From positions 138,880,001 through 138,944,000 of the forward strand of contig OZ024742.1 of the NCBI GenBank assembly GCA_964016885.1: 64,000 bases of DNA. Direction: 5' to 3'. Both the position numbers and the translations under genes were made by a program. This document shows positions 10,901-63,906 of this stretch, one piece after another. The notes under the pieces are model-generated. The model was not told the origin of the DNA, did no database searches, and saw only the letters and a list, made by a program, of their open reading frames with translations. Each line of letters starts with the position of its first letter. Positions within the stretch are counted from its first letter, which is position 1. Origin of the DNA: Eledone cirrhosa. Its lineage: Eukaryota.

Positions 10901-11345
10901 CGGTTCGAGATAAATTCTACAGGCGCGGAAGTGCTGTCAGACGGACCTGCCCGAGATGCGCGCAGAGCGCCGAAACCGTTCTGCACGCACCGTCCAGTGT
11001 CCGTGTATTACTGACTTGTGGAGTTATGTTTAACAGCTGTTGTCTCGTGTAGAACGGATCCGGCTATCGGCCGAGTCCATAGTGAAGATCGACCCGCCGC
11101 CTTCTTTTGGCCAGGAAGGGCAGGCAATTTTCCTCTGTCTGGTGGCAGTAGCGAAAGAGGTTGTATGGTGGACGAGGTTGAAAGGACTGAAGACAGACAC
11201 TTTTCTCTTCGGCCAATCCCTCATCAACTTTTTCAAGTTTCACTTGGAAAGGAAGGTGAGGGTGGAGAGAGAAGTGCTTCCCCCCCCCCCCCAGTACATT
11301 TGCTGAACGGTGGGTGAAAGCGGCAAGAATGGCCCGTGTGAGTCA
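7960..11345 (+). pseudogene. Tx1 ORF2 (APE endonuclease + reverse transcriptase + C-terminal Cys motif), disrupted
   Basis: MAVLRVGCLNVRGL, VYAP, SYIDR, YSDH, PGYWKLN, KSPGLDGL, FRPITLLN, LDQSKAFDRVDH and CPRC. The catalytic motif reads YAED instead of YADD, and there are frameshifts. Confidence 0.92.
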
Positions 11346-19100: not shown

Positions 19101-19556
19101 ACATAATCCCAGCGTGCATCTAAGATACCGTTCCAGTCACCCACTAACTCTAAAGAGCGGGACGTTCCAAGAAAGGTCTCTAGTCGTCTGAAGAAATCTG
19201 GCCGTCCTGCTCCTGTTGGGGCGTAGACGGCTACTAGCCTGAAAGCATTGCCTTCGCTGCCGGTCACGTCCAGCACCACCGACTTTCCTTCCGGGTCCAG
19301 GAAGATGGCCCGTATGGCGAGATCCAAGCCTCTCCGAAAAAGCACGGCAACGCTTCCCCCCGATCCTGGACGGCTGGGAGATGCGTATACATCGTAGCCG
19401 CCGAAGATCGGTGCGAAGGCTCGTGCTTCGGAGATTCTGGTCTCGCTGATGGCCACCACATCTGTTTAGTGACCTGAGGTTGTTGAGCAGGTGACCCTGC
19501 TTCCAAGATGACCCCAGGCCACGTACATTTATACTGCCTATTCTAAGTACGGCCAT
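16169..19556 (-). pseudogene. Tx1 ORF2 (APE+RT), frameshifted
   Basis: MAVLRIGSINVRGL, VGDWN, SYLDR, PGYWKLN, LDQSKAFD, VRQGFPLS and SAYADD. Confidence 0.92.
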
Positions 19557-25710: not shown

Positions 25711-28700
25711 TACAACACCACTACAACCTAATACCACTATACTACCACTACCACTACAACACCACTACAACCTAATACCACTATACTACCACTATCACTA
25801 CAACAGAAAATAAAACCTAATACCACTATACTACAACTATCACTAAAACAGAAAATAAACCTAATACCACTATACTACCACTAACACTACAACTACAACC
25901 ACAACCTAATACCTCTATACTACCATCACTACAACAACCAATACAACCTAATACCACCACTACAACAACTACAACAACTACAACCGAATACTTCTATATT
26001 ACTACCACCACTTCAACCGAATATCTGTATACTACCACCACCACTACAACAACTACAACTACAACCTAATACCACTATACTACCACCACCGCTACAATCC
26101 AATACCACTATACTACTACCACCAATACAACAACAAAAGACCCAAATACCTCTATACTACCACCACCACTACAATAACCACTACAACCGAAAATCTGTAT
26201 GCTACTACCACCATTACAACAACAGCTACAACCTAATACCATTATGCTACCACTACCACTACAACAAGAGCTACAACCTAATACCACTATACTACCACTA
26301 CCACTACAACAACTATAACAACCTAATACCTCTATACTACCACTACCACTACAACAACAGCTACAACCTAATACCACTATACTACCACTACCACTACAAC
26401 AACAGCTACAACCTAATACCACTATACTACCACTACCACTACAACAACAGCTAGAACCTAATACCAATATACTACCACTACCACTACAACAACAGCTACA
26501 ACCTAATACCACTATACTACCACTACCACTACAACAACAGCTACAACCTAATACCTCTATACTACCAGTACCACTACAAGAACAGCTACAACCTAATACC
26601 ATTATACTACTACTACCACTACAACAACTATAACAACCTAATACCATTATACTACCACTACCACTACAACAACTATAACAACCTAATACCACTATACTAC
26701 CACTACCACTACAACAACAGCTAGAACCTAATACCACTATACTACCACTACCACTACAACAACAGCTACAACCTAATACCATTATACTACCACTACCACT
26801 ACAACAACTATAACAACCTAATACCTCTATACTACCACTACCACTACAACAACAGCTACAACCTAATACCACTATATTACCACTACCACTACAACAACAG
26901 CTAGAACCTAATACCACTATACTACCACTACCACTACAACAACAGCTACAACCTAATACCACTATACTACCACTACCACTACAACAACAGCTACAACCTA
27001 ATACCTCTATACTACCACTACAACAACAGCTACAACCTAATACCATTATACTACTACTAACACTACAACAACTATAACAACCTAATACCACTATACTACC
27101 ACTACCACTACAACAACAGCTACAACCTAATACCACTATATTACCACTACCACTACAACAACAGCTAGAACCTAATACCACTATACTACCACTACCACTA
27201 CAACAACAGCTACAACCTAATACCACTATACTACCACTACCACTACAACAACAGCTACAACCTAATACCACTATACTACCACTACCACTACAACAACAGC
27301 TACAACCTAATACCATTATACTACTACTAACACTACAACAACTATAACAACCTAATACCACTATACTACCACTACCACTACAACAACAGCTAGAACCTAA
27401 TACCACTATACTACCACTACCACTACAACAACAGCTACAACCTAATAACACTATACTACCACTACCACTACAACAACAGCTCCAACCTAATGCCACTATA
27501 CTACCACTACCACTACAACAACTATAACAACCTAATACCACTATACTACCACTACCACTACAACAACAGCTACAACCAAATACCACTATACTACCACTAC
27601 CACTACAACAACTATAACAACCTAATACCATTATACTACCACTACCACTACAACAACAGCTACAACCTAATACCACTATACTACCACTACCACTACAACA
27701 ACTATAACAACCTAATACCACTATACTACCACTACCACTACAACAACAGCTACAACCTAATACCACTATACTACCACTACCACTACAACAACTGTAACAA
27801 CCTAATACCATTATACTACCACTACCACTACAACAACAGCTACAACCTAATACCACTATACTACCACTACCACTACAACAACTATAACAACCTAATACCA
27901 CTATACTACCACTACCACTACAACAACTATAACAACCTAATACCACTATACTACCACTACCACTACAACAACTATAACAACCTAATACCTCTATACTACC
28001 ACTACCACTACAACAACTATAACAACCTAATACCACTATACTACCACTACCACTAAAACTATAACAACCTAATACCATTATACTACCACTACCACTACAA
28101 CAACTATAACAACCTAATACCACTATACAACCACTACCACTACAATAACAGCTAGAACCTAATACCACTATACTACCACTACCACTACAACAACAGCTAC
28201 AACCTGATACCACTATACTACCACTACCACTACAACAACAGCTACAACCTAATACCACTATACAACCACTACCACTACAACAACAGCTAGAACCTAATAC
28301 CACTATACTACCACTACCACTACAACAACAGCTACAACCTAATACCACTATACTACCACTACCACTACAACAACTATAACAACCTAATACCTCTATACTA
28401 CCACTACCACTACAACAACAGCTACAACCTAATGCCACTATACTACCACTACCACTACAACAACAGCTACAACCTAATACCTCTATACTACCACTACAAC
28501 AACAGCTACAACCTAATACCATTATACTACTACTAACACTACAACAACTATAACAACCTAATACCACTATACTACCACTACCACTACAACAACAGCTACA
28601 ACCTAATACCACTATATTACCACTACCACTACAACAACAGCTAGAACCTAATACCACTATACTACCACTACCACTACAACAACAGCTACAACCTAATACC

Positions 28701-31700
28701 ACTATACTACCACTACCACTACAACAACAGCTACAACCTAATACCACTATACTACCACTACCACTACAACAACAGCTACAACCTAATACCATTATACTAC
28801 TACTAACACTACAACAACTATAACAACCTAATACCACTATACTACCACTACCACTACAACAACAGCTAGAACCTAATACCACTATACTACCACTACCACT
28901 ACAACAACAGCTACAACCTAATAACACTATACTACCACTACCACTACAACAACAGCTCCAACCTAATGCCACTATACTACCACTACCACTACAACAACTA
29001 TAACAACCTAATACCACTATACTACCACTACCACTACAACAACAGCTACAACCAAATACCACTATACTACCACTACCACTACAACAACTATAACAACCTA
29101 ATACCATTATACTACCACTACCACTACAACAACAGCTACAACCTAATACCACTATACTACCACTACCACTACAACAACTATAACAACCTAATACCACTAT
29201 ACTACCACTACCACTACAACAACAGCTACAACCTAATACCACTATACTACCACTACCACTACAACAACTATAACAACCTAATACCATTATACTACCACTA
29301 CCACTACAACAACAGCTACAACCTAATACCACTATACTACCACTACCACTACAACAACTATAACAACCTAATACCACTATACTACCACTACCACTACAAC
29401 AACAGCTACAACCTAATACCACTATACTACCACTACCACTACAACAACTATAACAACCTAATACCATTATACTACCACTACCACTACAACAACAGCTACA
29501 ACCTAATACCACTATACTACCACTACCACTACAACAACTATAACAACCTAATACCACTATACTACCACTACCACTACAACAACAGCTACAACCTAATACC
29601 ACTATACTACCACTACCACTACAACAACAGCTACAACCTAATACCACTATACTACCACTACCACTAAAACAACTATAACAACCTAATACCTCTATACTAC
29701 CACTACCACTACAACAACTATAACAACTTAATACCTCTATACTACCACTACCACTACAACAACAGCTACAACCTAATACCATTATACTACCACTACCACT
29801 ACAACAACTCTAACAACCTAATACCATTATACTACCACTACCACTACAAGAACAGCTACAACCTAATACCACTATACTACCACTACCACTACAACAACAG
29901 CTACAACCTAATACCACTACACTACCACTACCACTACAATAACTATAACAACCTAATACCACTATACTACCACTACCACTACAACAACTCTAACAACCTA
30001 ATACCACTATACTACCACTACCACTACAACAACTATAACAACCTAATACCTCTATACTACCACTACCACTACAACAACTATAACAACCTAATACCTCTAT
30101 ACTACCACTACCACTACAACAACAGCTACAACCTAATAACACTATACTACCACTACCACTACAACAACAGCTACAACCTAATACCACTATACTACCACTA
30201 TCACTACAACAACTATAACAACCTAATACCTCTATACTACCACTACCACTACAACAACAGCTACAACCTAATACCACTATACTACCACTACCACTACAAC
30301 AACAGCTACAACCTAATACCACTATACTACCACTACCACTACAACAACTATAACAACCTAATACCTCTATACTACCACTACCACTACAACAACAGCTACA
30401 ACCTAATACCACTATACTACCACTACCACTACAACAACTATAACAACCTAATACCTCTATACTACCACTACCACTACAACAACAGCTACAACCTAATACC
30501 ACTATATTACCACTACCACTACAGCTAGAACCTAATACCACTATACTACCACTACCACTACAACAACAGCTACAACCTAATACCACTATACTACCACTAC
30601 CACTACAACAACAGCTACAACCTAATACCTCTATACTACCACTACCACTACAACAACAGCTACAATCTAATACCATTATACTACTACTAACACTACAACA
30701 ACTATAACAACCTAATACCACTATACTACCACTACCACTACAACAACAGCTAGAACCTAATACCACTATACTACCACTACCACTACAACAACAGCTACAA
30801 CCTAATACCATTATACTACCACTACCACTACAACAACTATAACAACCTAATACCTCTATACTACCACTACCACTACAACAACAGCTCCAACCTAATGCCA
30901 CTATACTACCACTACCACTACAACAACAGCTACAACCAAATACCACTATACTACCACTACCACTACAACAACTATAACAACCTAATACCATTATACTACC
31001 ACTACCACTACAACAACAGCTACAACCTAATACCACTATACTACCACTACCACTACAACAACTATAACAACCTAATACCACTATACTACCACTACCACTA
31101 CAACAACAGCTACAACCTAATACCACTATACTACCACTACCACAACTGTAACAACCTAATACCATTATACTACCACTACCACTACAACAACAGCTACAAC
31201 CTAATACCACTATACTACCACTACCACTACAACAACTATAACAACCTAATACCACTATACTACCACTACCACTACAACAACTATAACAACCTAATACCAC
31301 TATACTACCACTACCACTACAACAACTATAACAACCTAATACCTCTATACTACCACTACCACTACAACAACTATAACAACCTAATACCACTATACTACCA
31401 CTACCACTAAAACTATAACAACCTAATACCATTATACTACCACTACCACTACAACAACTATAACAACCTAATACCACTATACAACCACTACCACTACAAC
31501 AACAGCTAGAACCTAATACCACTATACTACCACTACCACTACAACAACAGCTACAACCTAATACCATTATACTACCACTACCACTACAACAACTATAACA
31601 ACCTAATACCTCTATACTACCACTACCACTACAACAACAGCTACAACCTAATGCCACTATACTACCACTACCACTACAACAACAGCTACAACCAAATACC

Positions 31701-34370
31701 ACTATACTACCACTACCACTACAACAACTATAACAACCTAATACCATTATACTACCACTACCACTACAACAACAGCTACAACCTAATACCACTATACTAC
31801 CACTACCACTACAACAACTATAACAACCTAATACCACTATACTACCACTACCACTACAACAACAGCTACAACCTAATACCACTATACTACCACTACCACT
31901 ACAACAACTATAACAACCTAATACCATTATACTACCACTACCACTACAACAACAGCTACAACCTAATACCACTATACTACCACTACCACTACAACAACTA
32001 TAACAACCTAATACCACTATACTACCACTACCACTACAACAACAGCTACAACCTAATACCACTATACTACCACTACCACTACAACAACTATAACAACCTA
32101 ATACCTCTATACTACCACTACCACTACAACAACTATAACAACCTAATACCACTATACTACCACTACCACTAAAACTATAACAACCTAATACCATTATACT
32201 ACCACTACCACTACAACAACAGCTACAACCTAATACCACTATACTACCACTACCACTACAACAACAGCTACAACCTAATACCATTATACTACCAGTACCA
32301 CTAAAACAACTATAACAACCTAATACCTCTATACTACCACTACCACTACAACAACTCTAACAACCTAATACCATTATACTACCACTACCACTACAAGAAC
32401 AGCTACAACCTAATACCACTATACTACCACTACCACTACAACAACAGCTACAACCTAATACCACTACACTACCACTACCACTACAATAACTATAACAACC
32501 TAATACCATTATACTACCACTACCACTACAACAACTATAACAACCTAATACCTCTATACTACCACTACCACTACAACAACTATAACAACCTAATACCACT
32601 ATACTACCACTACCACTACAACAACTCTAACAACCTAATACCACTATACTACCACTACCACTACAACAACTATAACAACCTAATACCTCTATACTACCAC
32701 TACCACTACAACAACTATAACAACCTAATACCTCTATACTACCACTACCACTACAACAACAGCTACAACCTAATAACACTATACTACCACTACCACTACA
32801 ACAACAGCTACAACCTAATACCACTATACTACCACTATCACTACAACAACTATAACAACCTAATACCTCTATACTACCACTACCACTACAACAACAGCTA
32901 CAACCTAATACCACTATACTACCACTACCACTACAACAACAGCTACAACCTAATACCACTATACTACCACTACCACTACAACAACTATAACAACCTAATA
33001 CCTCTATACTACCACTACCACTACAACAACAGCTACAACCTAATACCACTATACTACCACTACCACTACAACAACTATAACAACCTAATACCTCTATACT
33101 ACCACTACCACTACAACAACAGCTACAACCTAATACCACTATACTACCACTACCACTACAACAACAGCTACAACCTAATACCACTATACTACCACTACCA
33201 CTACAACAACAGCTACAACCTAATACCACTATACTACCACTACCACTACAACAACAGCTACAACCTAATACCACTATACTACCACTACCACTACAACAAC
33301 AGCTACAACCTAATACCATTATACTACCACTACCACTACAACAACTCTAACAACCTAATACCACTATACTACCACTACCACTACAACAACTATAACAACC
33401 TAATACCTCTATACTACCACTACCACTACAACAGCTACAACCTAATACCTCTATACTACCACTACCACTACAACAACAGCTACAACCTAATACCTCTATA
33501 CTACCACTACCACTACAACAACAGCTACAACCTAATACCACTATACTACCACTACCACTACAACAACAGCTACAACCTAATACCTCTATACTACCACTAC
33601 CACTACAACAACAGCTACAACCTAATACCACTATACTACCACTACCACTACAACAACAGCTACAACCTAATACCACTATACTACCACTACCACTACAACA
33701 ACAGCTACAACCTAATATCTCTATACTACCACTACCACTATAACAACAGCTACAACCTAATACCACTATACTACCACTACCACTACAACAACAGCTACAA
33801 CCTAATACCACTATACTACCACTACCACTACAACAACAGCTACAACCTAATACCTCTATACTACCACTACCACTATAACAACAGCTACAACCTAATACCA
33901 CTATACTACCACTACCACTACAACAACAGCTACAACCTAATACCACTATACTACCACTACCACTACAACAACTATAACAACCTAATACCTCTATACTACC
34001 ACTACCACTACAACAACTATAACAACCTAATACCTCTATACTACCACTACCACTACAACAACAGCTACAGCCTAATACCATTATACTACCACTACCACTA
34101 CAACAACAGCTACAACCTAATACCACTATACTACCACTACCACTACAACAACTATAACAACCTAATACCTCTATACTACCACTCAGGGACGTCTTAACAG
34201 CATTATAGGCCCCCGGGCAAAGCAGAGCACTGGGGCCCCTTCCTACACAACCACTCAGGGAAATAAAAATACAAATGGCCCCCTATCCTCGTGGGGCCCC
34301 CGGGCAACTGCCCAGCGTACCTACGCGTTAAGACGGCTCTGCTACCACTACCACTACAACAACTACGTGC
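25711..34370. repeat. 45-bp minisatellite array (~180 units) with higher-order structure
   Basis: Unit caacctaataccactatactaccactaccactacaacaacagcta (variant …caactataa). Homogeneous over ~26200-34183 with a degenerate left edge. Confidence 0.97.
34184..34341. mobile_element. hAT-type MITE (158 bp) with 8-bp TSD
   Basis: TIRs cagggacgtcttaac / gttaagacggctctg. TSD ctaccact at 34176-34183 and 34342-34349. Removing the element and one TSD restores a normal repeat unit. Confidence 0.85.
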
Positions 34371-34420
34371 CTAAAGTAGAAACAATTATTAGTGAGGTTC
34401 ATATTAATTCAACATGGAAT

Positions 34421-35169
34421 TAATAATTGTTTCTACTTTAGGCACAAGGCCAGCAATTATCCAGTGCATTACTGGTACTTTATTTTATCGACCCCGTAAG
34501 GATGAAAGGCAAAGTTAACCTCGGCGGGATTTGAACTCAGATGAATTAATAATAGTATTACTGTTGCATGATGATTGATAACTAGCATCCTTACGGGGTC
34601 GATAAAATAAAGTACCAGTAATACACTGAGGGTTATTGCTGGCCTTGTGCAATTATTAGACTCTTATTTTCCACACACGAAAGCAAAATAAAAAAAAACA
34701 TGCCAGATCACCAACCCATCGTGGGAAAGAGTCATTTTTGACACGTTGACCTGAAGAAATGGGAGAAAGAATGAACTTCCGTCGGTTTCGACGAGGAGCT
34801 GCTCTAGTTATTCGATCAACGAAAACAGTTAGCTCATGAAATTAACATGTATGTGGTCGGGCATTCCACATACACTAGTACACATGAAGGAATTCTCATG
34901 GAGATTCACGGTGATACAGTGTTTGACAAGTGTATTACTGGTACTTTATTTTATCGACCCCGTAAGGATGAAAGGCAAAGTTAACCTCAGCGGGATTTGA
35001 GAATGCTAGTTATCAATCATCATGCAACAGTAATACTATTATTAATTCATCTGAGTTCAAATCCCGCCGAGGTTAACTTTGCCTTTCATCCTTACGGGGT
35101 CGATAAAATAAAGTACCAGTAATACACTGGGTATTTGCTGGCCTTGTGCCTAAAGTAGAAACAATTATT
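34421..35169. repeat. Inverted duplication of a SINE-spacer-SINE composite
   Basis: 34421-34629 is the reverse complement of 34929-35169, including a non-SINE ~48-nt segment (atgaattaataatagtattactgttgcatgatgattgataactagcat). Confidence 0.85.
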
Positions 35170-35181
35170 TTAGCTGGCACA

Positions 35182-35482
35182 TATACTACTGCTACTGCTA
35201 CTGCTATTGCTGCTGTTATTGCTGTTGCTACTGCTGCTGCGGCTGTTGCTACTACTACTACTACTGCTACTACTACTGCTGCTGCTACTACTACTGCTAC
35301 TACTACTGCTACTGCTACTGCTGCTACTACTACTGCTACTGCTGTTGCTGCTGTTGCTACTGCTGCTGCGGCTGTTGCTACTACTACTACTACTGCTACT
35401 ACTACTACTACTGCTACTACTACTGCTACTGCTACTGCTATTACTGCTGTTGCTGCTGTTGCTACTGCTGCTGCGGCTGTTG

Positions 35483-35514
<32 letters not shown>

Positions 35515-35965
35515 GCTGCTACTGCTACTGCTACTGCTATTGCTGCTGTTGTTGCTGTTGCTACTGCTGCTGTGGCTGTTGCTACTACTACTACTACTGC
35601 TACTACTACTACTACTACTGCTACTACTACTACTACTACTACTGCTACTACTACTACTGCTGCTACTACTACTGCTACTGCTATTACTGCTGTTGCTGCT
35701 GTTGCTACTACTACTACTGCTGCTACTATTACTACTACTACTACTGCTACTACTACTGCTGCTGCTGCTACTACTACTACTACTGCCTCTACTACTACTA
35801 CTACTACTACTACCATTACTACTAGTACTATAACTACATCTGATACTACTACTACTGCTGCTACTACTGCTACTACTACTACTGCTGCTACTACTACTAC
35901 TACTACTACTACTACTGCTGCTGCTACTACTGCTACTACTGCTGCTGCTGTTGCTGCTGTTGCAT

Positions 35966-36005
<40 letters not shown>

Positions 36006-36019
36006 AGCTGCTGTTGCAT

Positions 36020-36068
<49 letters not shown>

Positions 36069-36294
36069 CATTACTACTAGTACTATAACGACAGCTGATA
36101 CTACTACTACTGCTGTGGCTACTACTACTACTGCTGCTACTACTACTACTACTACTGCTGCTACTACTGTTACTACTGCTACTACTGCTGCTGCTATTAC
36201 TACTACTACTGCTGCTGCTGCTGCTACTGCTACTTCTACGGTTGCTGCTACTACTGCTACTACTACTGCTCCTGTTACTGCTACTACAACAATA

Positions 36295-36326
<32 letters not shown>

Positions 36327-36590
36327 CATTACTACTAGTACTATAACTACAGCTGATACTACTACTACTGCTACTACTACTGCTGCTGCTACTACTGCTA
36401 CTACTACTACTGCTGCTACTACTACTACTACTACTACTACTGCTGCTGCTACTACTGCTACTACTGCTACTACTACTGCTGCTGCTATTACTACTACTAC
36501 TGCTGTTGCTACTACTGCTACTACTACGGCTGCTACTACTACTGCTATTACTACTGCTGCTGCTACTGCTACTACTACTACAACTCCTAC
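35182..36590. repeat. Compound (ACT/GCT)n trinucleotide tract
   Basis: Read directly from the sequence. Confidence 0.95.
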
Positions 36591-36764
36591 ACCTATTATA
36601 TTTGCCGCCACCACCATCATGATCACCACCATCACTTCTACGAAATCACCCAATTTTCAAGAAATAGGAGTCAAATCACCCTCATATCAAACCTCGTGTC
36701 TTTGAAAAAACGGAAGAATACGTTAGATAATGTATGATTCGATATAATATGCTTCAAGAGCGAC

Positions 36765-37253
36765 AAATTGGCAATATCGGTAGAGCGCCGGACAACATGC
36801 TTTGCAGCATATTGTCACGTGCCTTTACGTTGAAATCGATAAAATCCCGCCGATGTTAGCTTTGCCTTTCATCCTTACGGGATCGATAAAATATAGTACC
36901 AGTAATACACTGGAGCTGATTTAATGGTTTCCTTCTTCGCCAAAATTGTTGGCACTGTGCCTAAATCAAAAACCAATATAATGTGCTCCAACAAAAGATA
37001 CGGTATGGTCACAGCCGGATGACTTTAATAATATAACGATTTCTAGTATAGGTACAAGGCCAGTAATTTAGGGAGAGGGGAAAGTGGATTAAATCGACCC
37101 CAGTGCGTGACTGGTACTTTATTTTATCCACCCCGTAAGGATGAAAGGTAAAGTTAACTGCGGCGGGATTTGAGCTCAGATAATAAAGGGCCGTAACCCT
37201 ATACTGAAAAGCATGGCGTCCGACCCTCTACTTATACTGCCAATCCACCGCCC
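36765..37253. mobile_element. Tail-to-tail inverted pair of major-family SINEs
   Basis: + copy at ~36765-36980 and - copy at ~37035-37253. Confidence 0.8.
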
Positions 37254-37295
37254 CTTGATGACTTTAATAATATAACAACACGTAATATCAAAGTC

Positions 37296-37776
37296 ACAAC
37301 AACTGCCACTATTGGCAATACGTTACAACACAACTGCCACTATTGGCAATACGTTACAACACAACTGCCACTATTGGCAATACGTTACAACACTACTGCC
37401 ACTATTGGCAATACGTTACAACACTACTGCCACTATTGGCAATACGTTACAACACTACTGTCACTATTGGCAATACGTTACAACACAACTGCCACTATTG
37501 GCAATACGTTACAACACAACTGCCACTATTGGCAATACGTTACAACACTACTGCCACTATTGGCAATACGTTACAACACAACTGCCACTATTGGCAATAC
37601 GTTACAACACAACTGCCACTATTGGCAATACGTTACAACACAACTGCCACTATTGGCAATACGTTACAACACAACTGCCACTATTGGCAATACGTTACAA
37701 CACTACTGCCACTATTGGCAATACGTTACAACACTACTGCCACTATTGGCAATACGTTACAACACTACTGCCACTA
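37296..37776. repeat. 31-bp minisatellite (~15 units) with internal hairpin
   Basis: Unit acaacacaactgccactattggcaatacgtt, with the hairpin TGCCA-ctat-TGGCA. Confidence 0.95.
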
Positions 37777-37789
37777 CACCCATCACCTA

Positions 37790-38657
37790 AAAAAACAATA
37801 GCATCAACAACATTAGCAACAACAACAAAAACAACAATAGCAAAAACAACAGCAACATCAACAACAATAGCAACAACAATAACAACAACAGCAATAGCAT
37901 CAACAACTGTAAAATCAATAGCATCAACAATAATTACAACAATAGCAAAAACAACAGCATCAATAACATTAGTAACAACAGCTGTACCAACAGCAGCATC
38001 CACAACAGCATCAACAACAATAAAAACAACAATAACAACAACAGCATCAAAAACTGCATTAACAACAATAGCAACAACAATAACAACAACAGCAATAGCA
38101 TCAACAATAACAACAATAGCAGCAAGAACAACAATAGCAACAATAGCAACAATAGCAGCAACAACAACAACAATAGCAACAACGGCTGCAACAACAACAA
38201 CAACAAAGTAACAACAACAATAGCAACAACAGAAGCATCAACAACAATAGCAACAACAACAACAGCAACAACAGCAACAACAATAGCAACAATAGCAACA
38301 ACAACAATAGCAACAACAGCAGCAACAACAACAATAGCAACAACAACAGCAACAACAACAATAGCAACAACAGCAACAACAACAGCAACAACAACAACAA
38401 TAGCAACAACATCAACAACAACAACAGCAAAAACAACAGCAGCAACAACAACAGCAACAACAACGGCCATAGCAACAACAGCAACAACAACAAAGTATCA
38501 ACAACGGCAGCAACAACAACAACAATAACAACAACAACAGCAACAGCAACAACAACAATATCAACAACAGCAGCAACAATAGCAACAGTAGCAACAAAAG
38601 TGGCAACAACAATAGCAAGAATAGCAACAACAGCAGCCATAACAACAACAACAACAA

Positions 38658-38688
<31 letters not shown>

Positions 38689-39285
38689 AACAGCAGTATC
38701 AACAACAATAGCAACAACAACAGCAACAACAAAGTATCAACAACAGCAACAACAACAACAGCAACAACAACAACGACGACGACGACGACGACGACAACAA
38801 CAACAGCAGCATCAACAGCAGCAACAACAACAACAACAACAACAACAACAGCAACAACAGTAGCATCAACAACAATAGCAACAACAGCAACAACAAAGCA
38901 TCAACAACAGCAACAACAACAACAACAACAGCAACAACAGCAGCATCAACAACAGCAGCAGCAACAACAACAATAGCAACAGCAACAACAAAAATAGCAA
39001 CAGGAACAACAGCAGTATCAACAACAGCAGCCTCAACAACAATAGCAACAACAACAGCAACAACAAAGTATCAACAACAGCAACAACAACAACAGCAACA
39101 ACAGCAGTATCAACAACAGCAGCATCAACAACAGCAGCAACAACAACAATAGCAACAGCAACAACAACATCAACAACAATAGCAACAACAACAATAGCAA
39201 CAGGAACACCAGCAGTATCAACAACAGCAGCATCAACAACAATAGCAACAACAACAGCAACAACAAAGTATCAACAATAGCGCAT
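37790..39285. repeat. Compound (ACA/GCA)n trinucleotide tract
   Basis: Read directly from the sequence. Confidence 0.95.
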
Positions 39286-40854: not shown

Positions 40855-40887
40855 ATCTCTACACTCTCCTTTGGCTTTGCCGCCCAC

Positions 40888-43800
40888 ATGGATGTGTTAA
40901 GAGTAGGATGTTTGAATGCACGTGGCCTGGGCTCAACTTGGAAGCAAGCAAAGCTTCTAAATGACCTCAGGTCACGTGGTATAAATGTAATGGTTATCTG
41001 TGAGACTCGGATCAGCGTCGTGCGGCAGCTGGCCCCTACCTTCGATGACTTTGAGGTGCACGCATCTCTCTGTCAACCTGGAGGTGGGGGTGGGGTTGTC
41101 GTACTGCTGGAAAACCACCTGGGTCTCGCCGTACAGGTTGTTCACTCGGACCCGGAAGGTCGTTTGTTGGTGCTAGACGTTGGCAATAGTGGAGGTGCGG
41201 CCTTGAGACTGGTCGCCGTCTACTCCCCTTCCCGAGCTGAACGACCCGACTTCTTCCAGCCTCTGGAGACTTTTCTGGGAACGTCGCGTTCCCTGCTTCT
41301 AGCGGGGGACTGGAATGACATCCTAGATGCACGTTGGGACTATGCAGGAGCATGTCCTAATAGAGGGAGGTGTAAAAGCCTCAAGGGGTTACTCGACCAT
41401 TTTAACTTGGTCGATAGATATCGACTAGATTTTCCAACTGTGCCAACCTGGACTTGGACGAACCATAGTGGTCAATCTAGATCGTACTTAGATAGATTCT
41501 TAGTTAGAAGTAAGGATAGGGACATATTAAGCTGTCCAGAAATGTTCACGGTTGGCTATACAGATCACAAATTAGTGACCTGCGTAGTCAACCTTGAGAG
41601 AACACATAGACACGGTCCCGGTTACTGGAAACTTAATTTGTCTTTACCAGCAAAAGAGGCTTACAGAGACCGAATTAGCAGATTAGTTAAGGAGAGGTTG
41701 ACGGGTGCAATCGTCAACAGCCGATGGTGGGCATTTCTCAAAAGAGAGATTAGAACAGAATCAATAAGTTATAGCAAGATGTTAGCTGACGATAGGAATA
41801 GGAACGAGAAAGAATTAACAGGTAAATTAGAAGAGGCAATCAAGAGCGAAGATGTGGCCAGAGTGCTGGCATCGAGGACGGCCTTGGGCCAGTTTTTCGA
41901 TGCAAAGCATGAAGGCTGCGTCATTCGAAGTAAAATACGTGCTCTAGGTAATGAGGGGGCCAAAGCTGTTGGCTGGGCCCGCGTGACAGAAGCTAAGAGT
42001 GGAAATCGATCCACCATCCGGTCTTTGCAAGACGAGGATGGACGGGTGATCCGGGATCCTAAGCAGATGTGCGAGGCCTTTCAAAGGCACTTTGCCCGAT
42101 TGTTCGGGGGAGGCGGGGGTCCGGGCGGGGACGTGGATTTCGGTCCATACCTCGACGGCCTGCCGCGTCTCTCGAGCGAAGAGGCAGAGTCCTTCGAGGG
42201 ACCAATCTCGGCTGATGAGATCGGGGATGCGCTGAGCCAATGCAGCAGACGCAAATCTCCAGGTCTCGATAGTATACCTTACGAACTTTATTTGGCAATG
42301 CCGGTCTTCTTCTCCGAACTCCTCGAAGCAGTCTACTGCAATTGGCAGCAGAACGGGAGAATTCCTTGTTCTGTAGCCAAGGGCGTAGTCTCGCTGATGA
42401 GGAAGGATGAAAACAAGGGGGATAGTATAAATAATTTTCAGCCCATAACCCTGCTAAACACAGAGTTAAAGATTTTGGCCAAGGTGTTAGCAAAGAGGTT
42501 GGCGCTTGTCGTGGGTAGCCTGGTGGGAGATGCGCAGACATGTGCTATCCCATCCAGGTCCATTCACGTCAGCCTCCACCTCATGCGATACATCATAGAG
42601 AGGGTTGGCAACAAACCCGGTTTCGGTGGGGCCCTGATCAACTTGGATCAGTCTAAGGCGTTCGATAGGGTCGACCATGGTTACCTGGATGCGGTGCTAG
42701 CGGCGGCTGGGTTCGGTCCTGTTTTCAGAGGCTGGATCACTGCCTTACATAGCAACCACATCTGTTCTACGATCAAGGTGAACGGCTACCTTTCGAAGCC
42801 GTTCGAAATCACACGATCCATTCGACAGGGGTGCCCTCTCTCCTCCCTTCTGTACGTATTGACTCTCGAGCCTTTACTGAGGAAGTTGGAGTTGTTGCAG
42901 GGTATCCCCCTGGAACCAGGATTGAGCAAAGCGGTGTCGGCCTACGCCGATGACGTAACAGTAATGGTATCGACCGACTCGGAGATCGAGGCGATCGGCA
43001 CCTTACTGGAGGAATACGAAAGGTTGTCAGGAGCGAAACTGAACCGGGAAAAATCCATCGGGCTGCAACTCGGAACGTGGAGAGGCAGACCGATGCCTCC
43101 CGATGGTGTCGTCGGACACTGGACGGAGAGCCCGGTGAAGTTGCTTGGGGTCTGGTTTGGACCGGACCTCCAGGTGGAAAAGAACTGGGGCGAGGCTACG
43201 AGCAAGGTGTTTGCACTGACCCAGAAATGGGCCAAGTGTAAGCTGTCCCTGAAAGGTCGGGCGGAGGTGGCGAACATTTACATAGCGTCCGTCACCTACT
43301 ACCGCCTGACTGTCGTGCCTTGCCCTAAGGAAACACTCACCACCATGGAACGCATGCTCTTTCAATTTCTTTGGAAAAAGCGCCCTCCTATGGTGAGAAG
43401 ATCCATCTGTTGCTAACAACCTTCGAAAGGAGGGCTGGGGATGCCGTGGTTGATGATGCGTAGGCACGCATTAAGGCTACGGCACCTACAGGTATTCCTC
43501 ACTGGTCAACCGGTGTGGGCTCCGTTCGTGAGACGAGCCTTTCCGAGACTCGTCTTGCTCACCGAGCTGCAGTCCTGGGTCAAGCAAAGATCCGGAAAAC
43601 TGGGCGACTGGCACACTGAGTGTGCCCAGGCGCTCAGGGCTCTCTGGCAAGCGGACCCGGCCATCGGTGGAGAATATCCACCTCGTCATTCTATAGAGGG
43701 CTGGTGGCTAGCAGGGGCGATGACACCCTTGGAGAGTCGCTGGACATGGAAGAGGACGAACTGGCCAGCCTGTTCGGTAGGACTTTCGGCCCGGGACCAA

Positions 43801-44326
43801 TTGACAACTTCCAGAAGTCACTGGCCTGGCAGTGCTACCGGGGGCTCTACCCGTTCGAGAAAAGCTCTACAGACACGGGCGCCCGGGCAGGGATCCCTCG
43901 AAAAAGATTTGCCCTAGATGCGTGCGTCACGAAGAAACCGTTGCGCACGCATTGGTGCAATGTCCGGGCGTGGCTGATCTGTGGGGCTACGCCGAACGAC
44001 TGCTGTCGCGGGTGGCGCCGATTCGATTGACCGCCGAGTCTGTGATGACAATCAAGCCGCCTCCCCTCTTCACAAAGGAAGCAAAGGCGGTTTTTCTGTG
44101 CGTAATAGCCATGCTGAAAGAGGTTGTTTGGTGGACACGATTGAAAGGTCTGAGGTCAGGCGACTTCCTCTCTGGCCATAGTCTGGTCTACTTCTTCCGA
44201 TATCACTTCGGAAGTAGGATAAGAATGGAGAGAGAGGTGCTTGGCCACAGGCAGTTTTATGAAAGGTGGGTGATAGTGGCGAGAATGGCTCGTGTAAATG
44301 GGCCTTCTCTGTATACCATCCTGTAG
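40888..44326 (+). pseudogene. Tx1 ORF2 (APE+RT): 842 aa open, then a premature stop and frameshifts
   Basis: Intact GDWN, YTDH, RQGCPLS and YADD motifs. TAA at 43414-43416 replaces Gln in CCQxP. C-terminal CPRC…H…C lies in another frame. Confidence 0.93.
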
Positions 44327-48741: not shown

Positions 48742-49332
48742 ATGCTTTCTGATTCGGCCAGTAGTTTTATATTTACTAGTATTACTGTTACAAATATTAT
48801 TATTATCAACACACTTATTCCAATTCTATTTATTGGTTTGTTCACTGAATCTATGATGGTGTGCGGTGTTTCATTAACAGATCTACAGCACGACCGCTGT
48901 CTCTGTTTAAATGAAATCCACGCTGGTAAACTAAGGAAACCTATAGCATTTATATCAATCGATAGAGAATCGTTTCTGGTTGCAGAACAGAATGGTAGGA
49001 TATACCATTACATGTATAGAAGCATGAATACAACTAGACAGTCTGACGAATTACCGCGTCTGTTAGCAACGAAGAAGAAAATATTAGATTTATCAAATAG
49101 AATCGCTTACAACAATGAACGTCCGACTGACGAACGTGGTTTGATGTCTGTGACAATCCAGCCGCAGTTTAAAAGCAATAAAAAACTTTATGTTTATTAC
49201 ATCGCAGCGGGACATGAATCGGCTGTAATTAGTCAGTTCCATTTCCTGGACAACCAGCTAGAAAATGTGAGTTCCGAAGAAATAATTTTATTGCTACCCC
49301 GCCAGAGACCAAGTCAGGAAAACGGTGGACAG
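48742..49332 (+). CDS. HHIP-like protein (GSDH-type beta-propeller), first identified coding exon
   Basis: LCLNEIHAGKLRKP…FLVAEQNG…DERGLMSVTIQPQFKSNKKLYVYY…ENGGQ, donor CAG|gtaaga (phase 0). The start is uncertain because there is an alternative acceptor at 48880. Confidence 0.85.
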
Positions 49333-55332: not shown

Positions 55333-55412
55333 ATTTTATTTGGTACAGATGGTTTGTTATATATATCAGTAGGAGCAGGCTTTGGTTACTGGACAAATTT
55401 AGCTCAGAACAT
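55333..55412 (+). CDS. HHIP-like protein, exon 2 (not in the ORF track)
   Basis: tttcag|ILFGTDGLLYISVGAGFGYWTNLAQN(M)|gtaagt, phase 0 to 2. Matches the LLFGxDGYLYI…AQN segment of the HHIPL family. Confidence 0.88.
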
Positions 55413-56199
55413 GTAAGTTTCGCTAATGTCAACCAGTTTTCACTTTCATTTTCTTCTTCGCAGATATCTTCTTCGCCGATAATTCCTGGGAGGGTCCTGG
55501 GGGAAGAGTCTTCAAACACTCCTTCCGGTGCGGCCGGTCAGAAGCAATCGTTTCTAATTGATTTGTCTGCATCCCTAAGCGAGACTAGCCGAGTTCATGG
55601 ATGTTATCTAACCATGTTGCTCGGGGTTTACTCATGGATCTCTTGCAGTTTGGTTTTGTCCGTAAAATCTGTCCAGAGATTCTTTCCTAAAACATTCTAA
55701 TCATCATATACCCGTAATAGCGGAGCTGCGATCTCTCAATTAGGATACATCAACACTAACATAGATGAAACATTATCAGCAATAGTATTTGTGGCGGCAT
55801 GGTTAAAAGTTCGATAACTGGGTGGTTTGAAGTTTGCCCCCACCTCCACCCCATTCCAATATGCAGCACCTCAGATCAACTGAATGAAATTTGGTAGACG
55901 GAATCTGTTCTATCACCAGCTGAAGCTCCAAGCTATATGAAATTTGATGCCCTTCTCTAAAAAAATTTTAAATAATTATACACGATTATGTTTTATTGAT
56001 GATTACAAATTATATATATATATATGTCTGTGTGTGTGTGTGTGTGTGTGTTTCAAAATGTTATCTTTTCAATAATGTCACTTTGGCGAATCAAAGAAAG
56101 GATAAAAAAAGAAAAACAGACCCTTAGATATATTTTCCGTGCTATTTCCAATCTCACCTTTTCTCTATATCCACTGTTTTGTATAGAACCTTACTTCCC

Positions 56200-56238
<39 letters not shown>

Positions 56239-56562
56239 TATTTTTTTATACTATTCACACTCTGCTCTGTAAGAATATTGAGTGCTAATTTTGGTATACC
56301 GCCTATGGAAGCACCATAGCTACCATTATACACACGTATATATATATATATATTTATATATATAACAAAGGAATTGTGGTAGATGGACCATAACGCACCA
56401 GAGTACTCAATACTTACGGTAGTAGAGTGGGAAATAGGAAAAAGTATGACCCCGACGGCAGAGCTCTAGCCGTTTCGATATATATATTAAACTTAAGCCA
56501 AAATCTCAATTTGGGAAGATATAAGCTAGACCAACTGAAATAAGTTGGTTCTACTTATACAG

Positions 56563-56664
56563 TTCCCTGACCATGGTTTCTGGAACTCAAGAAATAACAT
56601 TAATCATTCTAAGACATTGGAATAACCAATATTGGAAGAATTACAGTTCCTTCATCGGGAGGAG
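56563..56664 (-). ncRNA. Hammerhead motif, CCGAUGA core, long helix II
   Basis: CCGATGA-aGGAAC…GTTCCa-GAAA-CCATGG-TC-agggaa. Helix I is imperfect. Confidence 0.6.
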
Positions 56665-56945
56665 AATTCTTCGGAATAAGGGGGAGAAGTTGAATACATA
56701 TCATATATATAGCATGTCGTTGTTAGATCGCATGGTGTTAACGTGTTGCGTCACTGAATTACTATATGAATGTATCCCACTCAAGTTGTCTCAGGAAATA
56801 GGAGCCAAAATCACCGAAATCTGCTAAAAAAAATGGGGATATATTCATTTAGTAATTCAGCGAAGCAACACATTGACACCATGGGGTTCGGCAACGACAT
56901 GGGATATATATGTATTCAACTTATCCCCTTATTCCAAAGAATTCC

Positions 56946-57043
56946 TCCCCCGATGAAGGAACTGTAATTCTTCCAACATTCGTTATTCCAAAGTCTTGGA
57001 ATGGTTAATGTTGCCTTTTGTGTTCCAGAAACCATGATCGGGA
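56946..57043 (+). ncRNA. Hammerhead motif, CCGAUGA core, long helix II
   Basis: TCCC-CCGATGA-aGGAAC..CAACATT..ATTCCAA agtc TTGGAAT..AATGTTG..GTTCCa-GAAA-CCATGA-TC-GGGA. Confidence 0.65.
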
Positions 57044-57377
57044 AATTGTAAAAGTAGATCCGATTTATTTTAGTCGGTCTAGCTTATATCCTCCCAAACT
57101 GAGATTTTGGCTTAAGTTTAATATATTTTATTACTTCTAGTAGATAATTTATTAATATATTTTATCCTTTCATTAAGATGTCTACGTATTAGAGACAGCT
57201 AACTTTAAAAATTAATATCAACTGCTCTATCATTGTTGAGCAGATTTAAACGGTTTTGGCTGCTATTTCCAGCAACATTATGGGCCCGTCGTATTGTCCT
57301 AATACATTGAGTGGGAAATATTCACATAGTAATTCAGTGATGCAACACGTTGACACCATGCGGTTCGGGAACGACAT

Positions 57378-57450
<73 letters not shown>

Positions 57451-57587
57451 GTTAAAATACTGGAGCGTGTTGGAGTTAAACACCCTCTTCGTATTATAGA
57501 AATGACAGTAAAAGGTATAGCTCAATGTAGTTAAACAGAGCCGAAAAATTAAGAAAGTAAAACAAAGAAGCCTTCAATACATCAAAA

Positions 57588-57625
57588 GCCGACAATGTTT
57601 CGTCCTATTAAGGACTCATCAGGGC
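57588..57625 (-). ncRNA. Canonical minimal type I hammerhead ribozyme
   Basis: GCC-CTGATGA-GTCC ttaata GGAC-GAAA-CATTG-TC-GGC on the minus strand. Confidence 0.88.
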
Positions 57626-58182
57626 AATTAAAACAACAAGAAGTAATATCGGCAGATACAAGCCGGAAGCTCCGAAGAATATGGAGTGTACATACACTAA
57701 AGTATTGCAAGATTATGGGTAAAAATATATAATAAAAATAATAAAAATATATAATAAAAATTACTAAGGATGTATATAACATTAAGAACCATATTACAAA
57801 TATAGTCCAAAGCAAAAGAAACCTAGAGCTAAACAAAGGTGGTTATATAGAGCAGGAATTATATATAATACAATGTAATATAATATAATATACCTTTACC
57901 AATATTAAAATTACAATAAAAATCAAAAGGTACAATATGCATATGTATATATGTACGCACACGTACACATACATACACATACAACAATACACATATCCAT
58001 ATTCAACTGCACAAATTAAACCTTATTAAGAGTTTGAATATAAAAATAAGCATGATAGGAATGAAAATAATAATAATAATAATACTAATACATCTACCCA
58101 ATATACATGAGGTAATAATATGATATAATTATAAGTAGCACATATAATAAATAATAAACTATTCTATTATATTATATTATAT

Positions 58183-58372
58183 AGGGCGGTGGATTGGCAG
58201 TATCGGTAGAGCGTCGGACGCCATGCTTTCCAGCATAGTTACGTCCCTTTACGATCTGAGTTCAAATCCCGCCGAGGTTGACTTTGCCTTTCATCCTTAC
58301 GGGGTCGATAAAATAAAGTACCAGTAATGCACTGGATAATTGCTGGCCTTGTGCCTAAAGTAGAAACAATTA
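58183..58372 (+). mobile_element. Major-family SINE at the palindrome centre
   Basis: Full SINE flanked by the direct repeat attatattatata. Confidence 0.9.
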
Positions 58373-58924
58373 TATTATATAGTATATAATTGTATTGTTT
58401 ATTATTTATTATATGTGCTACTTATAATTATATCATATTATTACCTCATGTATATTGGGTAGATGTATTAGTATTATTATTATTTTCATTCCTATCATGC
58501 TTATTTTTATATTCAAACTCTTAATAAGGTTTAATTTGTGCAGTTGAAGATGGATGTGTGTATTGTTGTATGTGTATGTGTGTGTACGTGTGCGTACATA
58601 TATACATATGCATATTGTACCTTTTGATTTTTATTGTAATTTTAATATTGGTAAAGGTATATTATATTATATTACATTGTATTATATATAATTCCTGCTC
58701 TATATAACCACCTTTGTTTAGCTCTAGGTTTCTTTTGCTTTGGACTATATTTGTAATATGGTTCTTAATGTTATATACATCCTTAGTAATTTTTATTATA
58801 TATTTTTATTATTTTTATTATATATTTTTACCCATAATCTTGCAATACTTTAGTGTATGTACACTCCATATTCTTCGGAGCTTCCGGCTTGTATCTGCCG
58901 ATATTACTTCTTGTTGTTTTAATT

Positions 58925-58962
58925 GCCCTGATGAGTCCTTAATAGGACGAAACATTGTCGGC
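58925..58962 (+). ncRNA. Canonical minimal type I hammerhead ribozyme (sense to HHIPL)
   Basis: GCC-CTGATGA-GTCC ttaata GGAC-GAAA-CATTG-TC^GGC-TAATAAA, with predicted cleavage after 58959. Confidence 0.9.
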
Positions 58963-59007
58963 TAATAAAGACTTTTGATGTATTGAAGGCTTCTTTGTTT
59001 TACTTTC

Positions 59008-59044
<37 letters not shown>

Positions 59045-59920
59045 TTAGGGTAAATATTGATGCAATTCAATTCAAGCACTCAACGTACTTTTTCCACATA
59101 GGAGTGACGGAGTAAATATCGAATAAGTAAAAGCGAAGTAGTTTCAGATGTTCAAGTCCTTTAATAATAATGCTGTGATATTATAGTACATTAGAACGGT
59201 GGGTAAACTACAGTATACAAGGCAGTAGTCAATCTGGTACACAGTCATAATTTCCATCACATGGAACAAAACCAAAGAAAAACAGATATAAAGTACACAA
59301 AAGAAAAGAACCAATAATGAATAAATGCAAAAACACAGAGTACATATATGCAAAATGATCCATATGATTGTCAATTTGTTAATGTATAGATTGAATTTAC
59401 TGTAGTTTACCCTCCGTTCTAATATCGTTCAATATGTGGATAGTGTAACAGGGACATTGGAACCCCTCTCAGAACTTCTTACTTAAACATCTCTCTCCAT
59501 ATTATTTACTCACTTCAATCTATATGTTTTTTACTCACCTCAATTCGGATTCTCACTTGAAATTTTTTTTAATTTCTAATTGTTAATTTTTTAATTGTTT
59601 AATTTATAATTTCTGATTTTTGATTTAGGATTTTAATTTTTATTTCCAACTCTCACTCATAACTTCCAATGTAAAACCATGATACCTAGAATTAAATATA
59701 TTTTCTCTTGGGAATTGATGGTCAGTCGTACTGTCCATGCTTGGTGAGAGGTAGTATTGTGACCTGTAAAAACTAACACTCTCCAGTTCTATTTACATGC
59801 CAACACAAGAGCAAGAACGAGGAGCTCATTCTACTGACATGGCTTTAAAAAAGTGTCTGTTTGCATAATTTCAAATGAATCGAATATTATTATTAATATT
59901 CGAAAAACTCAGATTACATT

Positions 59921-59966
<46 letters not shown>

Positions 59967-60544
59967 AATTGGCGTATACCTTCCTAGGTACTTCGAGTCT
60001 CCCGTAGCAAGTTGATTTTACTGCGTTCGTCAGACTTCAGATATTCACAGCCGGTGATATTTCAATAAAGTTCCTCTGAAAAAACATGCTTCGGGATACA
60101 TATAAAATATACATACACAAGCACACACACATATAATTACAAGTATGAACGAACACACACACACACTCACACTCACACACACACAAATATATGTCTTGTT
60201 AATCGGCACAGGAAAGGTACAATATTCTGACAGTCTTTCTAATTTGGAATATTTCGTTATTCAGTTTCCGAAAGAGTTATGATGGTTGCCCAGAGGTCTT
60301 GGATTATGCTCTCCGTGCGGACTGGTGGCTGTCTGGATATTTGATGACCACAACCGAAGAATATATTTTGTTCTATGCGGGCATGGCTTAGATATATCGT
60401 TCTTCGTCTTAAGGTATGAGTTTGCGTCCAGTGAATTTGTTCATATAAGCCATCCCGCGGTGTTGCAGAGTCCGCACCACAGAACCATTGACGTAGGGTT
60501 TACATTCATTATTCTACTGGAAAAAAAATTGGAACAAACCTACT

Positions 60545-60840
60545 GCATATATAGCAAAACTAAAATTCAGTAAGTTATTTAATGATTTTCAAAACGCACT
60601 AAAAATGATATCCACAGCGTAAAAACACCAGGTAAGGCTCTATTATTCTCTGACAAAACAAAAACATATACCAGGTAGACAGAAGCACCTACGACCAATT
60701 GCTCATAAATAACATTACCAGTAATTACAAGAAAGCCAAGCCAAATACATACGATAGCATCAACAAAAAGACGAAAGAAATAGCAGCCGTGTTACATTTG
60801 GACGATAGAATAGAGACACGACCCAAATAACATGCATTTT
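60545..60840 (+). mobile_element. Penelope-like (Naiad-type) ORF fragment upstream of the RT core
   Basis: LKFSKLFNDFQNALK/DIHSVK…FSDKTKNIYQVDRSTYDQLLINNITSNYKKA…INKKTKEIAAVLHLDDRIE, matching the (A/S)DK(T/G) motif of PLE RTs. Confidence 0.65.
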
Positions 60841-60952
60841 ACTAAGCCATTAAACAAATAATAACAAAAAACATAGCACAAAATAATATCAGTTTGCAAC
60901 ACGGCTAAAATAGCAAATGTTTTCACTTTTTCACTTTTTTTTTCATTCTAAG

Positions 60953-61131
60953 GAGCTCGTTCATCGGAAAAATGCTTCGTATAAATGCAAATGTCTCATC
61001 AACTGATCAGCTCTACAGTATACCCACGGCTAACCCTTTCGTCAACACAAGTGATGCAAAACCAGAGATCTATGCTCTTGGGATTAAAAATGCCTGGAGG
61101 TGTAGCGTCGACCAAGGTGATCCGCTAACTG
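60953..61131 (+). CDS. HHIP-like protein, exon 3
   Basis: ctaag|g SSFIGKMLRIN…YSIPTANPFV…PEIYALGIKNAWRCSVDQGDPLT g|gtaagt, phase 2 to 1. Confidence 0.92.
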
Positions 61132-62174: not shown

Positions 62175-63220
62175 GGTGGATTAGCAGTATCGGTAGGGCG
62201 TCGGACAACCTGTTTTATGGCATAGGGTTACGTCCCTTTACGATCTGAGTTCAAATCATGTTGTTTTTTTCATAGACAGAATAAATACATTTCTAAATAT
62301 AATTTTAAGTTATTCGCAGAATAAATATTACATACATTTTATCAATCATTGATTCTACCTTTGGCACAAGGCCAGCAATTTGAATGGAAAAGGAAAATCA
62401 ATTAGATCGATTCCAGTGCGTTACTGGTGCTTCATTTGTATCAACATTGTAAGGATGAAAGGCAAAGCCACTATGGTGGAATTCGAACTCAGAATGTAAA
62501 GAACTATAACTATATGTCGCAAAACGTTTTCTCCGACGCTCTATCGATTCTACCAATCTACTGTCCTATATATTTCATTAATAATGGTTTCTTATATAGG
62601 CACAAGGCCAGCAATTTTGGGGGAGGGGAAAGTCGATTAAATCGACCCCAGTGCGTGACTGGTACTTTATTTTATCGACCGCGTAAGGATGAAAGACAAA
62701 ATTAACCTCGGTGGGATTTGAACTCAGATCATAAAGGGGCGTAACTCTATGCTGCAAAGCATGCTGTCCGACGCCCTACTGATACTGCCAATCCGCTGCC
62801 CTTATACTTTTCATTAATAATGGTTTCTCATATAGGCACAAGGCCATCAATTTGGTGGGGAGAGGAAAGTCGATTAAATCGACCGCAGTGCGTGACTGGT
62901 ACTTTATTTTATCGACTTCGTAAGGATGAAAGGCTGGATTTGAACTCAGATCATAAAGGGACGTAACTCTATACTACAAAGCATGGCGTCCGACCCTCTA
63001 CCGATACTGCCAATCCACCGCTCTATACATTTCATTAATAATTGTTTCTACTTTAGGCACAAGGCCAGCAATTACCCAGTACATTACTGGGACTTTATTT
63101 TATCGACCCCGTAATGATGAAAGGCAAAGTTAACCTCGGCGGGATTTGAACTGAGACTGTAAAGGGACGTAACTATGCTAGAAAGCATGGCGTCCAACCC
63201 TCTACCGATACTGCCAATGA
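62175..63220. mobile_element. Cluster of five SINEs (one + fragment, four - copies in tandem)
   Basis: Repeated reverse-complement SINE cores at ~62350, 62580, 62815 and 63035. Confidence 0.85.
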
Positions 63221-63755: not shown

Positions 63756-63906
63756 GAGCAGGCCGTGGCCGTATCTTCTGTGGAGACGTCGGTGATCAAA
63801 TGTTTGAAGAAATCAATATTATATATAAAGAAGGTAATTACGGATGGAACTTACGAGAAGGGCGTCAATGTCGACTAAACCGTATTTGTAACCAAGCAAC
63901 AATTTC
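63756..63906 (+). CDS. HHIP-like protein, exon 4
   Basis: ttcag|ga [38 protein letters not shown]…|gtgagt. The phase-1 entry matches exon 3. Confidence 0.92.

Follow-up and report, generated by a model that had tools for sequence, protein, structure and literature searches.

A probable head-to-head insertion of a hammerhead-bearing PLE in an HHIP-like intron of Eledone cirrhosa, and the single-tail state of its family

Results

The inverted repeat that interrupts an HHIP-like gene of Eledone cirrhosa is very probably a young, doubly truncated, head-to-head insertion of a hammerhead-bearing PLE into an intronic (TA)n tract, which was later hit by a SINE; the hairpin that its RNA is predicted to form is then likely to be a passive by-product and not a ribozyme switch. 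Only one of its two arms carries the tail of the element, and the same asymmetry holds across the family, with exactly one tailed arm in 42/42 outward pairs for which both ends were read. Throughout, "the window" is the whole stretch of DNA analyzed, i.e. 64,000 nt of the E. cirrhosa assembly GCA_964016885.1 (contig OZ024742.1, positions 138,880,001 to 138,944,000, forward strand).

Architecture of the Insertion and Its Host Intron

The preliminary description of the window placed the repeat in intron 2 of a plus-strand HHIPL gene, and this location is borne out: an exon set with GT/AG sites (48742-49332, 55333-55412, 60953-61131, and 63756-63906), an open frame of 333 codons without a stop when the four exons are joined, and a match to HHIP-like protein 1 of Octopus bimaculoides (260/349 aligned columns identical) put the insertion in coding intron 2 (55413-60952), the number counting coding exons only, with 5′ UTR exons outside the count. 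The features concerned are the following.

55333-55412, plus strand: HHIP-like gene coding exon 2
57381-57447, no strand: left-hand part of the target site, a (TA)n tract; in the fetched loci, family ends lie directly against (TA)n
57448-57547, minus strand: 100-nt PLE tail, lacking from the right arm; where copies are in tandem, it runs on into the ORF start
57548-58159, minus strand: left arm, a 5′-truncated PLE 3′ end (pLTR / 3′ UTR)
57588-57625, minus strand: left-arm type I hammerhead, which the host pre-mRNA carries as antisense
58160-59010, plus strand: right arm, a second 5′-truncated 3′ end of the same PLE, tail-less and SINE-interrupted
58185-58368, plus strand: abundant SINE with a presumed A/B-box-like head; 14-nt duplication at 58171-58184 and 58369-58382
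58925-58962, plus strand: type I hammerhead, sense in the host pre-mRNA; helix I 3 bp (extendable), helix II 5 bp, helix III 2 bp
58964-58969, plus strand: AATAAA, the normal state of the family; in the monomer it is predicted to belong to distal helix I
59011-59043, no strand: right-hand part of the target site, a (TA)n tract
60953-61131, plus strand: HHIP-like gene coding exon 3

The near-identical inverted arms of about 610 bp that had been described are real: by alignment, 57548-58159 (minus strand) pairs with 58397-59012, giving 606 aligned bases with three substitutions, one 6-nt indel, and one 10-nt indel (four further mismatches, beyond the inversion junction, are left out of the substitution count). 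The inverted repeat does occupy the span 57548-59012 first assigned to it, but the true limits of the element are 57448-59010, since the left arm continues into a 100-nt tail (57448-57547) that reaches the (TA)n tract and had been missed. The arms are joined at 58159 with a 1-nt overlap, and the two putative cDNAs of the window copy would have stopped about 725 and 765 nt from the tail end. Both arms carry C at 58732, where T is found in 17/17 compared arms, so the two come from a single source.

Several smaller observations concern the same region. Both element ends fall right after CTT. The tail with its adjoining bases (57448-57560, minus strand) is predicted to form two hairpins (z −2.35, 3/200 shuffles as good). 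To the left of the insertion lies a second inverted repeat (56482-57126; 202-nt arms, 87%) that looks like a small DNA element, with internal repeats at 56836-56915 and 57313-57392.

A SINE had been placed at the center of the palindrome. The SINE is there, but it sits off the symmetry axis, inside the right arm and 25 nt from the 58159 junction. It belongs to an abundant type (118,315 genome matches to a 30-nt probe), and its head is presumably A/B-box-like. The 14-nt sequence duplicated at its flanks is present once in the sibling copy L031, so the SINE arrived after the PLE. The HHIP-like gene holds further inverted SINE pairs. The central SINE, which occupies the hairpin loop, shows 82-94% complementarity over 58193-58373 with an intron 3 array of inverted tandem SINEs (62648-63218; period 235); the two flank exon 3 and could favor exon skipping or back-splicing.

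Elsewhere in the window, a LINE at 40855-44326 has an 853-aa frame with Pfam PF03372 (endonuclease) and PF00078 (RT) and a frameshifted 3′ end, and related copies lie at about 8756-11011 (plus strand) and 16485-19465 (minus strand). The region 25711-39266 consists of coding-looking tandem arrays (a 45-nt unit repeated 190 times, (CTA)n, (AAC)n, and Thr-rich open frames), for which a mucin-like exon or a satellite are candidates.

The Parent Element, by Its Motifs a Hydra-Like PLE

A PLE origin of the inverted repeats, as originally proposed, is borne out by their identity to the 3′ end of longer genomic siblings. The right end matched 40 scored copies at 95-100% among 2236 candidates, and the exact 38-nt hammerhead has 1018 copies in the genome. 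The first 100 hammerhead matches listed, all on contig C1, comprise 14 outward, 0 inward, and 3 direct pairs; extrapolation from these matches suggests roughly 140 outward palindromes genome-wide. The direct (tandem) pairs are spaced by 4757-4867 nt, which is the unit length, and such pairs were used to define full-length copies because a first tail probe also caught ends running into TA.

The longer siblings represent an element of about 4.8 kb with a single ORF of about 890-900 aa, which includes an Asn/Ser-rich stretch, and an AT-rich 3′ region of about 2 kb. At 891-898 aa, the ORF has an RT-like YRDD motif and a C-terminal IGST/CxxC region. Pfam and NCBIfam scans of the ORF called neither an RT nor a GIY-YIG domain, and a PDB search with it gave no match; its homologues and Atlas neighbors carry PF26215, PF28514, PF01541 (GIY-YIG), and PF00078 (RVT_1). 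Assignment to the PLEs rests on motifs, homologues, and Atlas neighbors. The family also has these traits of PLEs: partial tandems forming pLTRs, inverted 5′-truncated copies, a tail at one end, and a hammerhead in the pLTR. The outer ends of the fetched loci run into TA repeats, a few after 1-7 extra bases.

Within the PLEs, the Hydra clade is marked by DKT in place of DKG, RWK, the lack of an N-terminal GxKF/Y, a cysteine linker, and (TA)n targets (PMC8557442). The element ORF has DKT at residue 129, RWR at residue 38, and the motifs CxCx5C, CxxC, and CxH; no match to an N-terminal GxK/R-F/Y was found in it. Around the conserved E and N there are CxxC and CxH with a CxCx5C linker and without a CX2-5CxxC finger, which fits the Hydra definition. 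By these motifs the element is classed as a Hydra-clade PLE, a placement in which the reference proteins were compared by eye. Like the Hydra elements (Craig et al., 2021; PMC8557442), it has a single ORF, a hammerhead near the 3′ end, and (TA)n targets. It differs from them in its length of 4757-4867 nt, where Hydra elements are generally under 3 kb (a tendency, not a diagnostic trait), in its 100-nt tail compared with 30-40 nt, and in RWR for RWK (PMC8557442); the ORF is also longer than the approximately 700 aa of most homologues, and its Asn/Ser-rich stretch and the AT-rich 3′ region of the element are further differences. A Hydra element from O. bimaculoides, Hydra-1_Obim, has both (TA)n preference and a hammerhead (PMC8557442, supplement), but its hammerhead sequence is, by eye, unlike the one described here, so we regard the two families as separate. 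On present sequence comparisons, this is a long Hydra-like PLE family with no match to a described one.

Two other affiliations were considered and rejected. Naiad membership was dropped, as Naiads carry an N-terminal endonuclease. A non-LTR retrozyme consists of short head-to-tail tandem units, each with a type I hammerhead (10.64898/2026.07.22.740005); here the copies are inverted, and the direct pairs lie 4.8 kb apart.

Other PLE families adjoin copies of this one on the same strand (L039:4421-5910, L046:4482-6533, L049:4179-5847, and L041:5441-7036), an arrangement suggesting that the same (TA)n tracts are used repeatedly by different PLE families.

Every Scored Outward Pair Has One Tailed Arm

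The 42 outward pairs comprise three groups. Among 39 fetched stretches and the window, 26 outward pairs had both ends readable, and all 26 were mixed, i.e. one arm tailed and the other tail-less; L045, in which one arm is broken before its end, was left out, and the other stretches are solo or tandem. In three more (L040, L044, and L064) the tailed arm is very short, with still one tail per pair. Finally, 16 further stretches gave 13 mixed pairs and three copies without an inverted arm, although 11 of these 13 had been preselected as mixed and are not independent.

Two sets are free of this bias. Pairs picked on the hammerhead alone were mixed in 14/14 cases. Complete genome-wide exact-match lists of 59 tail-less and 53 tailed ends gave, for pairs within 10 kb, 19 mixed, 0 tail/tail, and 0 tail-less/tail-less combinations, an outcome with P of about 2e-6 if the ends were independent. 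Not every insertion is paired: four of six tail-less ends without an exact tailed partner had no inverted arm.

Either arm can be the longer, in that the arm reaching farther 5′-ward is the tailed one in 19 pairs and the tail-less one in 21, with two pairs equal. The end point of the tail-less arms hardly varies, lying 101-105 nt from the tail end. At most junctions the two joined positions differ from each other, and they meet with a short overlap or a small insert. The two arms were mutual nearest neighbors in 16/25 scored pairs, several of the misses coming from short arms and a misaligned window center. Separately from the 42, five near-identical short inverted pairs with equal spacing lie within 0.5 Mb (G000:C4:204112472-204597532); they are likely a segmental amplification.

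Truncated copies in inverted arrangement, tails that are often confined to one end, pLTR hammerheads, and (TA)n targeting are already published for PLEs (PMC8557442, PMC3846280, PMC4209133). Compared with the inverted-pLTR insertions reported earlier (PMC8557442, Figure 2 legend; PMC3846280), the difference here is that the one-tail state holds without exception (42/42) and that either arm can be the longer. Our literature search, with older reviews and figures outside it, found neither a counted one-of-each rule nor a twin-priming model for PLEs; the strict count, not found in print, is a modest mechanistic lead.

The Hammerheads and Their Predicted Folding

The proposed pair of outward-pointing hammerheads, one at each arm end, is present, with cores at 58925-58962 (plus strand) and 57588-57625 (minus strand). 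A core-plus-stem-II scan identified only these two in the window, and thus no second hammerhead on its plus strand. The predicted cleavage site of the sense hammerhead is C58959/G58960. The word "textbook" applied to these motifs suits the core but not helix III, which has 2 bp, in the sense copy with a near-palindromic loop; Rfam gave 0 matches at gathering score in the whole window, and ARAGORN likewise gave 0. A conserved core, a helix III of 1-2 bp, and a palindromic loop are shared with metazoan type I and PLE hammerheads (PMC4209133, PMC11167929), from which the present motif differs in its 5-bp helix II and in having no extra base before helix II.

AATAAA is indeed present on the right arm and gone from the left, where a 10-nt deletion at 57587/57588, just after the hammerhead, also shortens helix I to 3 bp. 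The deletion junction has one match in the genome, i.e. the window locus alone, and the loss affects the arm that the host pre-mRNA carries as antisense. In the predicted long arm-arm duplex AATAAA lies in a 10-nt bulge, and only because of this deletion private to the left arm; the plus strand of intron 2 has 10 AATAAA hexamers. In a related abundant subfamily (L050:1450), T replaces C at the position of cleavage (58959), and this subfamily makes up about 65% of contig depth in run X1. Hammerhead identity of 38/38 in copies of an older subfamily is circular, the copies having been chosen on that match, and is not used as evidence.

It had been proposed that the antisense arm, being made first, can sequester the sense hammerhead. 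In the equilibrium fold of the plus strand, 38/38 hammerhead bases pair with the far arm at a mean probability of 0.998, within a total of 617 cross-arm pairs, so that sequestration is thermodynamically sound as predicted. Nothing marks it as special here, however, since any outward pair, read from either strand, has by its geometry the antisense arm first. The further claim, that sequestration prevents cleavage of the intron, is not supported by the fold predicted for an isolated right arm, in which helices I and II form at 0.75-1.0 but helix III pairing is at most 0.001 even without the antisense arm. Closing the 2-bp helix costs about 2.6 kcal/mol, and the stable helix III of monomer-active hammerheads is absent. 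These are equilibrium values, with which activity in vivo is compatible. Because helix III has 2 bp and the motif is of the dimer-dependent type, a lone hammerhead would likely show next to no activity, whether the antisense arm is present or not.

Published work on related hammerheads bears on this prediction. A helix III of 1-2 bp impedes monomer cleavage, a single PLE motif showed no activity and dimers low activity, and Schistosoma has dual hammerheads, one on each strand, at a spacing of 100-700 bp (Cervera and de la Pena, 2014; PMC4209133). A Poseidon PLE hammerhead from Anolis cut only with protein, and Anolis RNA-seq gave no ends at the hammerhead site (Frangieh et al., 2024; PMC11167929).

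The duplex had also been put forward as a candidate ADAR substrate, which is plausible given the 617 predicted cross-arm pairs and the precedent of squid, where editing at sites other than neural recoding sites coincides with intronic and UTR repeats (PMC9068888). By this analogy, ADAR editing of the hairpin would be plausible and ordinary.

Discussion

Formation of the Insertion

The one-tail rule, together with the finding that either arm may be the longer, points to a pair of independently truncated cDNAs, primed from opposite target strands and each at its own fixed site on the template, and the 42/42 pairs likely reflect two coupled reverse-transcription starts. In the mechanism we propose, the element protein would nick the symmetric (TA)n target on each strand. 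From one nick, reverse transcription would start at the tail end, and from the other at the pLTR end, which lies 100 nt upstream; each cDNA would stop early, and the two would then be joined end to end. In L1 twin priming, both target strands likewise prime cDNAs that are then joined to give an inversion, with the second primer at variable internal sites and with parts that do not overlap. Here, by contrast, the two starts keep constant positions, 100 nt from each other, and the arms are copies of one and the same sequence. Whether such two-site twin priming is obligate for every inverted insertion, one (TA)n strand always priming the tail end and the other the pLTR end, we regard as an evenly balanced question. 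An RT dimer that holds one RNA, with each subunit at a different start site, would make it so. The two fixed sites match those of an in vitro PLE study, which observed two start sites bounding the tail and extension from both strands, but the start site was no different between strands (PMC11167929).

Inverted arms would also result if one cDNA, or an antisense template, folded back and primed its own copying. This route has been proposed for rotifer Penelope elements, and PMC3846280 argues for self-priming from palindromes at junctions. The private variant shared by the window arms agrees with it, as do L088 and L090, whose two arms share one truncation point and overlap by 6 and 14 nt. Fold-back of one cDNA nevertheless predicts a longer tailed arm, and the tailed arm is the shorter in 21/42 pairs, including tail-only arms of 24-108 nt; with the near-fixed end of the tail-less arm (101-105 nt from the tail end) and the differing positions joined at most junctions, this makes self-priming an unlikely source of the family's pairs. 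A fold-back chimera of the assembly is a far more remote explanation, to which we give almost no weight. No contig of runs X1-X4 covered 58161-58164 (checked over 58105-58214), an absence that proves nothing; contigs of X1-X3 and RAD reads of X5 across 56900-60000 are swamped by repeat copies and stop at TA tracts, so that the locus is not confirmed in these data and no empty site was seen. The arms differ by three substitutions and two indels, a tail is found on one of them, the loop holds a SINE with its duplication, and 41 other loci show the same asymmetry of design, all of which argue against an artefact.

The model of the preliminary description concerns function: the antisense arm would shield the intron from an otherwise active hammerhead, and the pair would be a regulated element with ADAR or Dicer opening the duplex. 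The capture of all 38 hammerhead bases by the far arm, the intact state of the host exons seen, the AAUAAA in its 10-nt bulge, and the editing of repeats by cephalopods accord with this model. Set against them are a helix III that is not formed even without the antisense arm in the fold, a window without a second sense hammerhead, identical geometry at many sibling loci, and an AATAAA that is one of 10 on the plus strand of the intron. The arms, moreover, are 0.5% apart and nearly identical to dispersed copies, so there has been little time for selection. We therefore hold shielding to be improbable, more so than self-priming is as a route to the arms. If true, it would be a new route for tolerating ribozyme-bearing insertions in introns, and nothing here points to it. 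Under the preferred reading, a doubly primed insertion with a passive hairpin, the arms would zip up in the host pre-mRNA, bury the sense hammerhead, and probably attract ADAR like other inverted repeats.

Implications for the Family

The locus itself is ordinary, being one of many recent insertions, and its antisense-first layout is shared by the class as a whole; the tail rule of the family matters more than the locus. PMC8557442 treats it as an open question how PLEs come by their inverted repeats and tails. A strict one-of-each rule makes a sharp prediction for a reconstituted reaction, and in this family there are copies that retain long open frames, while the target, (TA)n, is a simple one. 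If two-site priming is true, this genome would be a natural record, likely of more than 100 pairs, of how PLE inverted repeats form, and one that speaks against self-priming.
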